IMG/VR virus record: IMGVR_UViG_3300021375_000006
Reading direction: 5' to 3' (one strand)
Source: a virus
Lineage: Duplodnaviria > Caudoviricetes
DNA: 64,000 bases
Part shown: piece by piece, positions 16,530 to 42,976 of the stretch
How the letters are laid out: each line of letters opens with the position of its first letter
Numbering within the stretch: position 1 is the first letter of the stretch
Notes under the pieces: generated by a model
What the model was told of the DNA's origin: nothing
The model's input: only the letters and a program-made list of their open reading frames with translations
The model's database searches: none
Position numbers and translations under genes: made by a program

Positions 16530-17360
16530 TTATACTGAATTTTGGTCCGTTGTTTCATTATCATACCAAAACCTATCCATCCAAGAATAAACATTATCTG
16601 AATCCTTGTCATTATGTTGTTCAATCGCATTATAGGTTGTTGTAAAAACATTAAGGTCTTTAAATTGATGGTTAATCCAAACGTCAATAGGTCCTTTAAT
16701 TGGAGTTTTTTTGCGTAGTTTACGAACACCTCGATCACTTAATAAATAGCCACTAAGCCACCATACGCCATTCTTTAATTTTTCTAAATTTACAGAATAT
16801 TTTTCTGCTGTATAACCTACAGTTGCTGGTAAAATAGAGAAGTAAACCATATCCCAATCTTCTGGTAATTCTTTAAAAACAGAATTAAATGTCTTTGAAA
16901 ATCCAACTTCAAATGTTATATCATCTTCAAGAAAAAGAGCTGCCTTGCCTTTAGATTCTATAAATTTATCCCACATTGCAATATGTCCAAGTGAAATAGC
17001 TATCTCTGATTTAGAACATGATAGAATTTGTTTTCTATAATGATTAATATTATCACTAAATGCCGGATCTGGTTCTATTGTATATTGCCAATTAAAATCA
17101 TAGTCTTTAAGTACTAGACTCTTATCCCAATCGTCTACATCATCTCCCCAAAAAGCCTTTTGCCAAGTTACAAAATCAGCCAGAGTTTGATCTCCATCTG
17201 TTTTAACTCGATCAAGCTGTTTTATTAAGGCCTCTTTTCGATCTTTCCTATGCTCTAAATTTAACACATAGACCTGATCTATATTTTTAGTATTTAATAG
17301 AGTGTTTTTACCAAATAGACCTGCTATTCTTTTTATCAGAGTTGTAGTCCCTCTACTCAT
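16530..17360 (-). CDS. Glycosyltransferase family 25
   Basis: YVLNLEHRKDR, IAISLGHIAMW, LFLEDD, GYLLS..G, PIDVWI. Confidence 0.85.
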   Translation of the reverse strand: MSRGTTTLIKRIAGLFGKNTLLNTKNIDQVYVLNLEHRKDRKEALIKQLDRVKTDGDQTLADFVTWQKAFWGDDVDDWDKSLVLKDYDFNWQYTIEPDPAFSDNINHYRKQILSCSKSEIAISLGHIAMWDKFIESKGKAALFLEDDITFEVGFSKTFNSVFKELPEDWDMVYFSILPATVGYTAEKYSVNLEKLKNGVWWLSGYLLSDRGVRKLRKKTPIKGPIDVWINHQFKDLNVFTTTYNAIEQHNDKDSDNVYSWMDRFWYDNETTDQNSV

Positions 17361-18319: not shown

Positions 18320-18376
18320 TAGTACTAATATACGAAAAATAATTGACATAAAAAAATCTAGAGGCAATTATTTTGC
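18320..18376 (-). promoter_or_regulatory. Conserved ~57-bp early-type promoter motif, copy 1
   Basis: Minus strand CAAAATAATTGCC...TTTTTTATGTCAATTATTTTTCGTATATTAGTACT; near-identical copies at 26291, 43285, 45079, 45192; TATATTAG resembles the Bacteroidota -7 TAnnTTTG. Confidence 0.75.
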
Positions 18377-18946
18377 AAAAAGTTTGTCTAGTGGATAAAG
18401 ATTATCCTCTGACTCGGCTCTTTCTGGATGCCATTGTACTGCCCAGATCTTTCTGCTCTCGTCTACGATCGCTTCTGGAATACCACCACCAATATGAGTT
18501 ACTGTAAAGTTATCTGCAACTTTAGCACAGTATTGATGATGTCTTGAATTAACGGTTGTAGTATTTCCGTCTCTATCTGTAATAATATGTTGTCGTGAAG
18601 GTCTAGTGGCATGTGATACATTATCTGAAAAGTCTGCAGCTGCATGAGCCTCTACTATTTCATCATCTATATTCTCTACCACACCACCAAAAAAGTGGTT
18701 AAGGATTTGCATGCCACGGCAAACTCCAATAATAGGTTGCTTATTTGCAATAGCCTCTTGAATCCACCTGAATTCTCTAATATCTCTATCTTTATCTTTA
18801 CCAATATCAGCACCACCTGCTAGAATAAGTGGTCCCGTAATAGGTTGGTTATCTAAAACCTCTGGTTCAAATCCATATCGGGTTAACCATTCAATAAATG
18901 CTGTTTTTTCGGAAGGTCCTTTCGGTGGCGCTAGATAAACTTTCAT
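18368..18946 (-). CDS. Class I glutamine amidotransferase / peptidase C26 (gamma-glutamyl hydrolase-like)
   Basis: LAGGADI, GVCRGMQ (nucleophile Cys), VNSRHHQ, QWHPE. Confidence 0.9.
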   Translation of the reverse strand: MKVYLAPPKGPSEKTAFIEWLTRYGFEPEVLDNQPITGPLILAGGADIGKDKDRDIREFRWIQEAIANKQPIIGVCRGMQILNHFFGGVVENIDDEIVEAHAAADFSDNVSHATRPSRQHIITDRDGNTTTVNSRHHQYCAKVADNFTVTHIGGGIPEAIVDESRKIWAVQWHPERAESEDNLYPLDKLFAK

Positions 18947-19253: not shown

Positions 19254-19327
19254 TGGAGAATAACGGAGTCGAACCGTTGACCTCCTGCGTGCAAGGCAGG
19301 CGCTCTAGCCAGCTGAGCTAATTCCCC
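19254..19327 (-). tRNA. tRNA-Ala(TGC), no encoded CCA
   Basis: GGGGAAT/ATTCTCC with G3:U70; CCTGC-CT TGC AC-GCAGG. Confidence 0.95.
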
Positions 19328-19333
19328 ATCGCA

Positions 19334-19645
19334 TTATTCTGCGTCAGGTACATAAACAGCTGCTCTGCCTTCTATGTCTGCCATTAAAGCTGTAACTTGG
19401 TCTTTTGTATAAGCTGATAACCACGCGCTATCATCTTGTTGTGTTACGCCATCAAAGACTTTACAATCAAATGCGTTGTAAGCATCTGCGCTAGCCTCTA
19501 CTGTTAATTCTGCTGCAGCTTCTGGATCTAGAGAAACTCTAGGTGGTCCTGCTGTTACATGAATTTGAAAAAAGTTATCAAAAACGTAATTTGATTCAAA
19601 TCCATTTTCTAAAGGTTTAAATACTAAGTCTGTAAACTGTGCCAT
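19334..19645 (-). CDS. Hypothetical protein within RNA array
   Basis: 103-aa ORF between ncRNA and tRNA-Ala. Confidence 0.6.
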   Translation of the reverse strand: MAQFTDLVFKPLENGFESNYVFDNFFQIHVTAGPPRVSLDPEAAAELTVEASADAYNAFDCKVFDGVTQQDDSAWLSAYTKDQVTALMADIEGRAAVYVPDAE

Positions 19646-19671
19646 AATTATATTAATTGTTTTTAATTTAA

Positions 19672-20073
19672 AAAAGAGGATCGTGTGCTAGAGTATACCA
19701 GCTCTAGAAGATCGTTCTATTGTATATATTACTGCATACCAACTAACTCTACTATTATTTCGAGTTCTACTCAAGATGGTTAATCTCGTTGTAGCGCCAC
19801 AATGGCTTTAGTTGTACCTTATCCCCTATAGAATAGGATTATTCGGTCACTAGGCAAGGCTTCCTCTCGGGTACTTGCAATGCTCTTCGTGAAATAGGTT
19901 TAGTTGTCTATTTCCCGATCTACCATCTTCTACTCTGTCGAGTCTCAATCACTCACTTTCGCAATTGAGCCGAAACTTGTTCGGTGTCAGATGTGCCTTA
20001 ACCCCTCTCACGTCAGGGTTTTTTCGGCCACACACTCACTCTCCGTCTGATCAGGAGTTCGAGTGCCTCTTTT
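19672..20073 (-). ncRNA. ~400-nt large structured ncRNA (GOLLD/ROOL-like context, family unassigned)
   Basis: Closed by AAAAGAGG/CCTCTTTT; >10 hairpins, several with GNRA loops; long-range AAGATGGT/ACCATCTT; no ORF in the track; boxA-like site just upstream. Confidence 0.75.
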
Positions 20074-20077
20074 AATA

Positions 20078-20088
20078 TGTTAAAGAAC
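20078..20088 (-). promoter_or_regulatory. boxA-like antitermination site
   Basis: GTTCTTTAACA versus consensus GCTCTTTAACA, 5 nt upstream of the large ncRNA. Confidence 0.6.
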
Positions 20089-20111
20089 TTTTATGCGAAT
20101 TGGGGTTTCGC

Positions 20112-20291
20112 TTACCCTTGCTTATTCTTGTTGCTTACGTAAACTCTTACGTCTTGTGCAACACCTTTGATAGTTTGCATTGCTTTACGTACTCTTGTAC
20201 CTGCAGCTTTGTTTCCCTTTTCGTCGAATTTTACCGCGTCATCTTGGATGCTTTCGATAGCTTCTGTAATTTGATTTAATAATTCTTGCAT
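20112..20291 (-). CDS. Hc1-type histone H1-like protein (59 aa, missed by track)
   Basis: Manual translation MQELLNQITEAIESIQDDAVKFDEKGNKAAGTRVRKAMQTIKGVAQDVRVYVSNKNKQG; EKGNKAAGTR.RK is the Bacteroidota Hc1 signature. Confidence 0.85.
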   Translation of the reverse strand: MQELLNQITEAIESIQDDAVKFDEKGNKAAGTRVRKAMQTIKGVAQDVRVYVSNKNKQG

Positions 20292-20346
20292 GTTTTGCTT
20301 TTTAAAATTTCTAATGTTTATACTTGGTTTATTGTATTTGTTTCAG

Positions 20347-20721
20347 TTATTCTGACTTTAAAGTATTATGTCTTCCGTTGAAACCGCCGTATTTTGTGTA
20401 TTCTTCATCTACCTCACCAATATCAAACCACTCAGTTGAGTACTTGTCTGTGGTTGATGAGTAAATATCCATGTCACCTTCAAATAGAAGTGATATTTGA
20501 TCTGCTAAATCTGTTTTATCTAAAGATTCTAATTGGTCACAGATGTCATACCAATCTTCATAATAGAGTTCTTGAATATACTCTACGAATTCTTGTTCTG
20601 ATTCAACATCTCCTTCATAAGGAAAATCTGGTAGATCTGTAAAATCTACAGGGTCTAGATCGACTGCGTCGTTAGCTTCCCAGTTCGTGTATTTTTCACA
20701 CTTTCTAATTTGAAATGCCAT
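20347..20721 (-). CDS. Acidic hypothetical protein
   Basis: 124-aa ORF. Confidence 0.6.
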   Translation of the reverse strand: MAFQIRKCEKYTNWEANDAVDLDPVDFTDLPDFPYEGDVESEQEFVEYIQELYYEDWYDICDQLESLDKTDLADQISLLFEGDMDIYSSTTDKYSTEWFDIGEVDEEYTKYGGFNGRHNTLKSE

Positions 20722-21954: not shown

Positions 21955-22164
21955 CTAATATTTTGTTGCTATTTTTTGATATGCTGCAAAAAGATGGTCC
22001 GCTGCCTTCTCTACTTCACCTCTTGCTTCCTTCTCTATTTTTAATACTGGGTGTTGAATTAAAGTTTCATCAATTAAACCTAATACTATATTTAAAGTAT
22101 GTACTACCTCATGATAATGAAAATCATCTAATTCTAAGTCTCCTATTTTTTTCTTGCTACTCAC
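21955..22164 (-). CDS. Hypothetical protein
   Basis: DDFHYHEVVH ORF in operon. Confidence 0.55.
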   Translation of the reverse strand: MSSKKKIGDLELDDFHYHEVVHTLNIVLGLIDETLIQHPVLKIEKEARGEVEKAADHLFAAYQKIATKY

Positions 22165-23992
22165 TTTTAATCCACATTTTATTATTAATAACTAATACGT
22201 CTACATCAGATTCTTGGAATAGTCTCATGGCATCCTCTGGGGTTTCTACTATTGGTTCTCCTTTTACATTTAAAGATGTATTTATTACTATAGGAATACC
22301 TGATATACTTTCAAATCTCTCAATTAGCTCATATAGTTTAGAATTGTGCCCTTTAGTTAGAGTCTGTACTCTAGCAGTATTATCAATATGAACTGCTGAT
22401 GGAATTTCAAATGGCCTCTTACATGGAACTGTATGTAACATAAAAGGTGAGTCAAAATCCATAACAAACCAGTCTTGTGCTTTTTCTTGTAATACAATTG
22501 GAGCAAATGGCCTATACCACTCTCTAAATTTAACTCTAGAATTTAGTATGTCCTTCATTTCTGGATTTTTAGGTGATGTGATAAAAGATCTATGCCCTAA
22601 TGCTCTAGGACCATTTTCAGATCTACCATCAAACCAACATATAATTTTATCTTCATTTAACTGCTCAGCAATAAAATCTAAATCTAATGGTTGACTGCCT
22701 TCAAGATAACTATCATCCCATGTTAATCCTGTATATGCTAACTCAGATGTACTATAATCTTGTCGAGGTACACCTAGTGTATAATGTAAATACCAAAGGG
22801 CTCCTCCTGCAGATGTGCCATCGTCTCCACATGCTGGGAACATGTGCATTTTATCAAAATCAGTTTCTGTATGAATTTTATAGTTTGCGTTACAATTTAA
22901 GAATGTACCACCGGCAACGCACAGATTTCCATCATTAAATTTTTCAGTCTCTTCATATAGATCTTGTGTATATTTTACTAAAGATCTCTCTGTAATAAAT
23001 TGAATAGTGGCTGCAATATCCATAGCCTCTTGTGTGGTTGACTCTTCTTTAAGAAAGGGGAATTGCCACATTCTATTAAAAGAATTGTGGCCTGGTTCTT
23101 CTGCTAATACCTCTGGTCTTTGTTGCCTTTTTTCTAATGGGAACCTACCACTTATTTGAGAGAATAACCAGTCAATATATCTCCACTCTTCTCGCTCTAT
23201 TTTCCTATTGAATTGAGGTTCTGTCCACTCTTCCCACTTATCATAGGCTTCTCTTTTTATTCTACCGTATGCTGCTAATCCCATTAAAGTCCCTGCCTTT
23301 AATGTACCTGGACCTATTCCTAAATATTCTGTCGCAACATCATAAAAATTGCCTAGCATATAGCCTGGATTTCTAAAGAAGTGTAATTGAGTATCATCAC
23401 CTACCCAATATCCACTACAGGCTAAATCGTGGTGCATAGATGCGTCTACTGTAAAAATAGAAGCCTTGTTAAAATTAGAAGTAAAAAATGCAGAAGCTGC
23501 GTGTGCTGCATGGTGGTCTACAAAATGACCGTTAAAAGTTTTATCTACACCGTCTATTCTAATATTAAGTGCAAAACCTTTCGCTAAGTTAATATCTTCA
23601 GATCCGTATGGTAATAATGTTCTTTGTATTAGATTAGGTAGTGTGAATCCCCATTCTGTTTTCTCAGGCCTAGGCTCTCCTTCAATATGATTTAAAATAG
23701 GAGTTTCGGCAGACCAACTACCAAATGTAGTTAATGGGTATCTAGTATCATAGGGAGAGTATATTGACATCCAAGGCGCTAGTTCTTTTACCCAAGCAGT
23801 TAATGTAATAAAGTCAATATCTTCTAGTTTAACATCCCAGCCATTTAAAAAGAACTCTAATTGTTCTTTAGTAATGTACATGTCTTTTTTAATTCTAGAT
23901 AAACGTTCTACTGAAGTTGTAGCTACAAGCTTATCATCTTTTATTAAAGAAATAGCAGCATCGTGGCCTAAATGAATTCCAACTATAATCAT
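22157..23992 (-). CDS. Carbamoyltransferase (NodU/CmcH family)
   Basis: GHDAA, ERLSRIKK, DHHAAHAASAF, MGLAAYG, AGGTFLNC.AN, GPRALGHRS, REWYRPFAP, HIDNTARVQT, NTSLNVKGEPIV. Confidence 0.95.
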   Translation of the reverse strand: MIIVGIHLGHDAAISLIKDDKLVATTSVERLSRIKKDMYITKEQLEFFLNGWDVKLEDIDFITLTAWVKELAPWMSIYSPYDTRYPLTTFGSWSAETPILNHIEGEPRPEKTEWGFTLPNLIQRTLLPYGSEDINLAKGFALNIRIDGVDKTFNGHFVDHHAAHAASAFFTSNFNKASIFTVDASMHHDLACSGYWVGDDTQLHFFRNPGYMLGNFYDVATEYLGIGPGTLKAGTLMGLAAYGRIKREAYDKWEEWTEPQFNRKIEREEWRYIDWLFSQISGRFPLEKRQQRPEVLAEEPGHNSFNRMWQFPFLKEESTTQEAMDIAATIQFITERSLVKYTQDLYEETEKFNDGNLCVAGGTFLNCNANYKIHTETDFDKMHMFPACGDDGTSAGGALWYLHYTLGVPRQDYSTSELAYTGLTWDDSYLEGSQPLDLDFIAEQLNEDKIICWFDGRSENGPRALGHRSFITSPKNPEMKDILNSRVKFREWYRPFAPIVLQEKAQDWFVMDFDSPFMLHTVPCKRPFEIPSAVHIDNTARVQTLTKGHNSKLYELIERFESISGIPIVINTSLNVKGEPIVETPEDAMRLFQESDVDVLVINNKMWIKSE

Positions 23993-42860: not shown

Positions 42861-42976
42861 GGGGGAGTAGGGGATTCGAACCCCTACTTCTGCCTAACCA
42901 ACTTAATCACATCGCGTAACTAGTATGATGCTTTCAGTCTTAAGGTTGGAGCGTCGTACCGTTTGACTAACTCCCC
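42861..42976 (-). ncRNA. 116-nt tRNA-like RNA with expanded anticodon arm (possible intron-containing tRNA)
   Basis: GGGGAGT/ACTCCCC; D arm GTC-AAACGGTAC-GAC; T arm AGGGG-TTCGAAT-CCCCT; oversized central region with CCAAC/GTTGG and CATC/GATG. Confidence 0.7.

Follow-up and report, generated by a model that had tools for sequence, protein, structure and literature searches.

A structured RNA of about 400 nucleotides (nt) is encoded on the minus strand at positions 19673-20072 of the window, the 64,000-nt stretch of viral DNA analyzed here as a whole (IMG/VR record IMGVR_UViG_3300021375_000006; Caudoviricetes). It is a real, conserved and transcribed RNA of uncultured marine phages and represents a two-core variant of the manA family (RF01745) that is not captured by Rfam. 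The P2-P3 core of manA is duplicated, and the two cores lie in series, sharing the helix H4, one P5-like hairpin and the closing helices. As a whole, the explanation favored here, a stand-alone minus-strand gene for a two-core manA-type RNA with RNA-only self-assembly as its mode of action, is considered moderately probable.

Scans with degenerate patterns returned 12 IMG/VR loci, besides a chance match (L011), and at least 100 metagenome stretches, nearly all marine. Among the matches listed, to which all homolog counts and context tallies in this text refer, nhmmer found at least 91 full-length units, of which 77 are unique and 49 remain distinct when grouped at 95% identity (the representatives). 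These form three clades, namely the window-like clade 1, an intermediate clade and the divergent clade 2. The RNA extends from the 5' arm to the 3' arm of the outermost helix P0, and the full-length units in marine contigs are its homologs.

Relationship to the manA family

A permissive Rfam scan of 19300-20400 gave a manA match at 19682-19865 on the minus strand, in the 3' half of the RNA, with 29.8 bits (E = 1.4e-5) against a gathering cut-off of 55.2 bits. In relatives, RF01745 matched both halves, with 48.1 and 23.8 bits in L005, 44.7 and 18.8 bits in L009 (clade 2), and 29.2 and 20.3 bits in G004. Matches on both halves were also obtained in whole phage records, including a complete genome of 216 kilobases (kb), and none of five phage records contained a canonical manA that scored above the cut-off. 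Two copies of the signature CCGAAWAAWCC..GGGGWTAAGG are present in the window (19817-19846 and 19996-20027), with 0 chance matches in 100 shuffles, and a search with a core 2 profile recovers core 1 in collinear order (E = 2e-6), the best of 860 shuffled copies reaching 0.52. The manA matches on both halves and the collinear core profile therefore show an internal duplication of the manA core.

The preliminary description of this stretch, made from the sequence alone, had suggested a large structured phage RNA near transfer RNAs (tRNAs), which was borne out, and had proposed that it was either a truncated relative of the phage RNAs GOLLD and ROOL or a new class. The first proposal fails, as neither family was matched at gathering thresholds, nor at E values up to 10 on 19300-20400. 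Instead of the unrelated new class of the second, the RNA is an enlarged derivative of manA, given the RF01745 match here and those on both halves in relatives. The absence of RNase P, transfer-messenger RNA and intron signatures, also noted there, agrees with the permissive scan of 19300-20400, which contained none of them. At gathering thresholds, the Rfam comparison identified tRNAs only, both in the 64-kb window and in 13 loci. Sub-threshold matches to SAM-III (E = 0.11) and STnc320 (E = 1.8) were taken as chance.

A description of 2010 presented the manA motif as a riboswitch candidate in the 5' untranslated regions (5' UTRs) of marine metagenome sequences, cyanophages and Photobacterium, with modest covariation (PMC2864571). 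In the family seed, tRNAs flank two of the first three sequences. According to a preprint of July 2026, kissing loops and a tetraloop-receptor contact assemble manA RNAs into pentamer-based decamers and a 60-subunit icosahedral-like cage (10.64898/2026.07.01.735769); the structures reported there are of single-core manA RNAs.

Secondary structure and covariation

The helices were derived from antidiagonal runs of compatible columns and tested on a structure-blind MAFFT alignment of 43 sequences. In the resulting fold model 93.6% of cells are paired, compared with 38-45% when the partners are slid by 1-3 columns, two-sided changes occur in 71 of 115 pairs (18-27 in the slid controls), and the covariation score is 0.362, compared with 0.08-0.10; none of 500 shuffles attained any of these measures. 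RNAalifold, applied to seven clade 2 sequences alone, predicted the same P0, H1, closing helix, P2, P3, H4, H5, H6, P2', P3' and P5-like hairpin, as well as a closing stem for core 2. The latter, GCAU/AUGC (H4b), is invariant and hence uninformative within clade 1, so that the comparison between clades is its sole support. From 5' to 3', the first half of the RNA consists of P0, H1, H0b, core 1 (P2 and a three-hairpin junction), the 5' arm of H4, H5 and H6, followed in the second half by core 2 (P2' and a three-hairpin junction), a small hairpin, the 3' arm of H4, H7 and the 3' arms of H0b and P0.

The RNA is closed by P0, whose 5' arm AAAGAGG (20066-20072) pairs with CCUCUUU at 19673-19679; this is the end pairing AAAAGAGG/CCTCTTTT pointed out in the preliminary description, and it is 96.9% paired, with two-sided change in five of its seven pairs. 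The hairpin H1 (20037-20065), supported by covariation and loop comparison, is the equivalent of manA P1 and carries the palindrome CUGAUCAG in its apical loop. The inner closing helix H0b, formed by the 5' arm GUGUG (20031-20035) and CACAC at 19683-19687, is 99.5% paired with two covarying pairs and corresponds to the manA closing stem.

Core 1 contains P2 (19995-20028), with the GAAAAAA/UUAAGG internal loop that is a manA signature, supported by covariation and by the core profile, and P3 (19924-19993), a junction around three hairpins, supported by covariation. Its counterpart in core 2 comprises P2' (19816-19847), with a GAAUAA/UAAGG internal loop, supported by covariation and the alignment to manA, and the covarying P3' (19740-19814), also a junction around three hairpins. 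The helix H4, which wraps core 2, is formed by the 5' arm AGAUCG (19916-19921) and CGAUCU at 19709-19714; it is 100% paired, covaries in five of six pairs and was predicted independently in clade 2.

Each P2 loop pairs with a strand inside H4, forming the pseudoknots PK1 and PK2. In PK1, CGUGAGA (20006-20012) in the P2 loop pairs with UUUCACG at 19888-19894 (94% paired, two-sided change in four of seven pairs), and in PK2, UUCUAU (19828-19833) in the P2' loop pairs with AUAGAA at 19715-19720 (93.5% paired, four of six). The local hairpin H5, GAAAUAG/CUAUUUC (19891-19914), has a 3' arm that overlaps the 3' arm of PK1 by 4 nt in clade 1; no switch between H5 and PK1 is claimed, because in the intermediate clade the two arms lie side by side without overlap. 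The hairpin H6, GCAAG-UACCCGAGAGGAAG-CUUGC (19854-19878), has a nearly invariant loop and is supported by the helix test. Finally, H7 (19688-19707), with the loop CUGGUAUA, is the equivalent of manA P5 with its GGUAUAC loop; it is 100% paired and covaries in all six pairs.

Every hairpin listed in the preliminary description is present in the sequence, and most of them are helices that covary among the homologs, covariation having been named there as a test. In the DNA letters used there, CCGA/TCGG corresponds to H3a, CTCAAT/ATTGAG to H3b, ACTC-GACA-GAGT to H3c, GCAAG[CC-GAGA-GG]CTTGC to H6, GCCA/TGGC to H3a' and CTAGAG/CTCTAG to H7. The long-range pairing AAGATGGT/ACCATCTT is likewise present as a complementarity; however, it is 85% paired with two-sided change in one pair only and clashes with two supported helices, and it was rejected. 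Two further candidate pairings lacked real covariation and were likewise rejected: a CAU/GUG helix enclosing H6, and one between the 5' leader and the loop of the small GUA/UAC hairpin that lies 3' of core 2 (19722-19732).

The RNA lies on the minus strand: invariant G-U pairs exist on that strand only (columns 94/106, for instance, are U-G in 43 of 43 sequences), and the flanking genes and the tRNAs are all on it. The flanking genes are two open reading frames (ORFs), of 59 amino acids (aa) upstream (20112-20291) and 103 aa downstream (19334-19645), and tRNA-Ala and tRNA-Gly start 332 nt downstream of the RNA. The folding energy of the minus strand is -117.9 kcal/mol (z = -4.25), which none of 100 shuffles equals, and the plus strand folds more weakly relative to shuffles (z = -2.49). 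Consistent with the GC-enriched and ORF-free character noticed at the outset, the GC content of the stretch is 0.40-0.445, compared with about 0.31-0.33 alongside, and the only ORFs inside it are of 32-48 aa.

Just 5' of the RNA, all clades have a nearly invariant leader of 15 nt with the consensus GUUCUUUAAMAUAUU, which in the window is GUUCUUUAACAUAUU (20074-20088, minus strand) and in clade 2 takes the form GUUUUUUGAAAAUUG. Its positions G1, T2, T3, C4, T6, T7 and A9 are invariant in 43 sequences. The leader is retained even where a tRNA ends 1-10 nt upstream, and it is usually preceded by a variable hairpin. It may be a promoter element or the remnant of one, a processing site or a part of the RNA itself.

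Expression

The stretch is represented in 20 sequencing runs from 13 studies, ten of the runs being recorded as RNA. In four metatranscriptomes from four studies, at an identity of at least 97%, there is one contig each that contains the RNA only, with lengths of 362-381 nt and spans of 19684-20049, 19700-20056, 19678-20056 and 19660-20038. The flanking genes, tRNA matches aside, are represented at the same identity by a single 3x contig (X35) beside a 247x contig of the RNA. Contigs with exact matches are about 7-25 times deeper over the RNA than over the neighboring ORFs (X8, X19), and run X7 has an even, DNA-like cover. A discrete transcript of about 400 nt, which the preliminary description had named as a test of its proposal, is thus matched by contigs of about 380 nt confined to this stretch in RNA libraries. 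These data are evidence, although not proof, that the RNA is a discrete and abundant transcript.

Genomic context and alternative functions

The surroundings of the RNA vary among phages. A same-strand tRNA lies within 20 nt in eight of the 49 representatives: L013 has tRNA-Ala on its upstream side, at 10 nt, and tRNA-Gly on its downstream side, at 4 nt; tRNA-Thr lies 1 nt upstream of the RNA in L017 and L026; and in six representatives the RNA is followed by tRNA-Ala or tRNA-Gly at a distance of 0-15 nt. Another 18 have a tRNA 165-688 nt downstream, and the remaining 23, to which the whole of clade 2 and of the intermediate clade belong, have none nearby. The window belongs to the second group, so the placement at the head of a tRNA array given in the preliminary description is correct as to the nearby tRNAs but not as to direct adjacency, the 103-aa ORF intervening before tRNA-Ala and tRNA-Gly at 332 nt. 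A canonical intrinsic terminator directly follows the RNA in the intermediate clade and in L003 and L071, and L107 leaves no room for an ORF. In clade 2 a promoter-like motif and a 5' hairpin recur upstream, together with a long terminator-like hairpin downstream. Scans for sigma-70 promoters and terminators around the locus in the window gave sites no more numerous than in shuffles.

The first alternative to a stand-alone RNA is a tandem riboswitch or cis-regulatory leader, in which two ligand-sensing aptamers in one 5' UTR would control the 103-aa ORF and the tRNAs through termination or translation. It agrees with the original proposal for manA (PMC2864571) and with the ORF that starts 26 nt after the RNA in the window; ORFs unrelated to it lie 20-45 nt downstream in the L060-like subgroup, and the overlap of the H5 and PK1 3' arms in clade 1 could be a conformational switch. 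However, the overlap of H5 and PK1 is absent from the intermediate clade, the 103-aa ORF follows the RNA in only a few relatives (27-47% identity), and the downstream elements are heterogeneous, being abutting tRNAs at 0-15 nt, terminators without an ORF or unrelated ORFs, with none conserved across the family. No terminator or sequestered ribosome-binding site overlaps the 3' end, no expression platform is visible, and the contigs from RNA libraries end at the RNA without extending into the ORF. The lack of a conserved downstream element and of a visible expression platform argues against a general cis-regulatory role, and the varied context together with the RNA-only contigs favors a stable RNA that stands alone over a cis-regulator. 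The riboswitch is considered unlikely.

Secondly, the RNA could be an accessory of the tRNA operon, serving as a processing scaffold or as a decoy for host RNases or tRNA-targeting defense nucleases and thereby protecting or maturing the phage tRNAs. A same-strand tRNA is found within 700 nt in 26 of 49 representatives, abutting in eight, and where the junction measures 0-4 nt, the RNA ends would have to be generated by RNase P and the tRNA 3'-processing enzymes. This role is nonetheless improbable, given the 23 representatives without a nearby tRNA, which form independent transcription units, the lack of any tRNA-like element inside the RNA, and an elaborate conserved fold that exceeds the needs of a spacer.

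Least credible of all is that the RNA is the partner of the small Hc1 histone-like protein encoded directly upstream (59-aa ORF; Pfam PF07432, 74.3 bits, E = 6.9e-21) in a ribonucleoprotein. In 36 of 102 loci an Hc1 gene precedes the RNA at a distance of 12-132 nt, but this adjacency occurs within a single subclade, where shared gene order explains it. The gene is missing despite ample upstream sequence in the L002/L001 and L060 groups, most of the intermediate clade and clade 2, and Hc1 is known as a DNA-binding protein. As a general feature of the RNA, Hc1 adjacency was rejected.

Possible self-association and the favored explanation

The apical loop of H1 is centered on GAUC (UGAUCA, CUGAUCAG) in 30 of 40 parsed representatives, and three representatives carry other palindromes (GUAC, UGUACA and CAUG). 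L002 and L001 have the loops UGGCCA and GGCC. In six representatives H1 bears instead a C-GACG-G tetraloop, which is the P1 loop of the manA consensus and seed. Changes of the loop that preserve the palindrome are what would be expected of a homotypic kissing contact, and the palindromic H1 loops thus hint at self-association.

According to the explanation favored here, the gene encodes a manA-motif RNA with a duplicated P2-P3 core, in which P0 and the manA-type closing helix enclose the whole, H4 wraps two hairpins and core 2, and the single P5-like H7 is common to both cores. In some phages the RNA would be made from its own promoter and terminator, and in others it would probably be freed from tRNA-containing transcripts by tRNA end-processing. 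The product may act as an RNA-only architectural particle, with the palindromic H1 loop and other exposed loops as the putative mediators of self-association, and might be likened to the single-core manA pentamers, decamers and 60-mer cage and to the nanocages of tRNA-island GOLLD and ROOL. Judged on its own, RNA-only self-assembly, which is suggested by the palindromic loops and the reported behavior of the manA family, is a tentative proposal with less than even chances. A more specific version, in which the two-core RNA is a covalently fused manA 'dimer' that forms a closed RNA-only shell or ring in infected cells, for example pentamers of double units mimicking the manA decamer, is possible but less likely than not.

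Several points count against this explanation. The Rfam manA score is below the cut-off everywhere, with at most 48.1 bits compared with 55.2. The evidence for expression consists of assembled contigs, which cannot define the ends, the strand or the true level of the RNA. The H1 palindrome is mostly inherited, selection for self-complementarity being supported by no more than about four independent switches, and the tetraloop replaces it in six representatives. The self-assembly of manA was reported in a preprint and only in vitro, at high RNA and Mg and with single-core RNAs (10.64898/2026.07.01.735769). Lastly, the nearby downstream ORF leaves a local cis effect possible in the window and the L060-like subgroup.

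Carriers and neighboring genes

Genes for a tail sheath, a large terminase and a DNA ligase are also present in the window, and the carriers are uncultured marine myophages. Among cultured phages, the closest terminases come from Tenacibaculum phage PTm1 (32.8% identity), Sphingomonas phage PAU and Flavobacterium phage MaF61. The RNA was not found in these three phages or in LR756500, a single 13-bit match in MaF61 being rejected as it lies inside a coding region. Bacteroidota hosts are a reasonable guess, no more. With blastn (word size 11), the RNA and one clade 2 member had no match in 50,697 phage records, and a search of IMG/VR for loci with the downstream 103-aa ORF gave no relatives. 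A scan of genome contigs found one true member (L118) and four chance matches. L118 belongs to clade 1 and lies on a 63-kb contig (JBMYMD010000015.1) binned into a Flavobacteriaceae metagenome-assembled genome, which is a weak hint at the host or reflects a binned phage contig.

The acidic 103-aa protein has no PHROG match and no Pfam match above cut-off; in loci other than the few related ones that have its homolog, the RNA abuts a tRNA. Auxiliary genes around the tRNA/RNA island, on the minus strand at 16530-17360, 18368-18946 and 22157-23992, encode glycosyltransferase-like, glutamine amidotransferase and NodU/CmcH-type carbamoyltransferase proteins, the last sharing 31-36% identity with its counterparts in cyanophages and in pelagiphage HTVC008M. 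In a second tRNA cluster, a 116-nt Rfam tRNA match (42861-42976, minus strand, 41.6 bits) that ARAGORN did not report could represent a tRNA-like element or else a tRNA that carries an insertion or intron.

Promoter-like motifs recur both up- and downstream of the RNA in L007, L009 and L005 (TGTnTTTTnG, about 13 nt, TATATATA), and a motif in L001 and L002 (TTTTGTATATTTG) resembles the Bacteroidota -7 box TAnnTTTG. The downstream hairpin of clade 2, of about 70 nt (about 655-730 in L005; just 3' of the RNA in L007, L012, L040 and L106), has a covarying stem, a conserved UUUUAGUUUCCACU inside and a terminal U-run, and could be a terminator that carries a second small conserved element.

Significance

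For 16 years manA has been an orphan riboswitch candidate, and the relative described here is widespread, abundantly transcribed and encoded independently, in many cases joined directly to tRNAs at its ends. For the whole manA family, this makes a free architectural RNA a more likely role than cis-regulation, in agreement with the cage report of 2026. If the more specific version above, a fused dimer that forms a closed shell or ring, is true, phage tRNA islands would repeatedly encode cage-forming RNAs, with GOLLD and ROOL, implying a common role in the handling of tRNAs or translation components, and the manA family as a whole would not be a riboswitch class. After GOLLD and ROOL, the RNA adds a third, unrelated lineage of ornate phage RNAs tied to tRNA islands, making their role for phages a more pressing and more testable question. 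Additionally, with its shared helices and paired pseudoknots, the two-core design offers a natural experiment on the duplication of an RNA domain and a ready target for cryo-electron microscopy.

Comparison with known systems

Similarly to manA, the RNA has a P2 helix with a GAAUAA/UAAGG internal loop and a multi-stem junction enclosing three hairpins, both present twice and with covariation, and also a closing helix and a P5 hairpin with a GGUAUAC-type loop, as single copies common to both cores. The P2-loop pseudoknot appears in the 2010 description as 'pseudoknot?', and PK1 and PK2 would be its equivalents, judging from one seed sequence. All members have a hairpin in the position of P1, with the GACG loop in 6 of 49 representatives and palindromic loops in others. 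Marine phages carry both kinds of RNA, and tRNAs lie beside some of the manA seed members. The two-core RNA differs from manA in its length (about 400 nt, compared with about 190), in having two P2-P3 cores on one H4/P4-like helix and the extra outer helix P0, in the palindromic P1 loop of most members, in its scores of 18.8-48 bits against the cut-off of 55.2, and in its stand-alone gene context, whereas manA is annotated to the 5' UTRs of protein-coding genes.

Tandem riboswitches, such as the tandem glycine aptamers, resemble the two-core RNA in having two homologous aptamer-like modules in one molecule; here, however, the modules are nested in shared helices and have no expression platform. 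GOLLD (RF01998) and ROOL (RF03087) have been described as phage RNAs 'often near tRNA islands' that form RNA-only nanocages of unknown function. Like them, the two-core RNA is phage-encoded, often beside tRNA islands, abundant, and built of many helices and pseudoknots with no known protein partner. The analogy is functional only. GOLLD and ROOL, with about 580 to over 800 nt compared with about 400, are of separate evolutionary origin and have no match to the RNA in sequence or structure.
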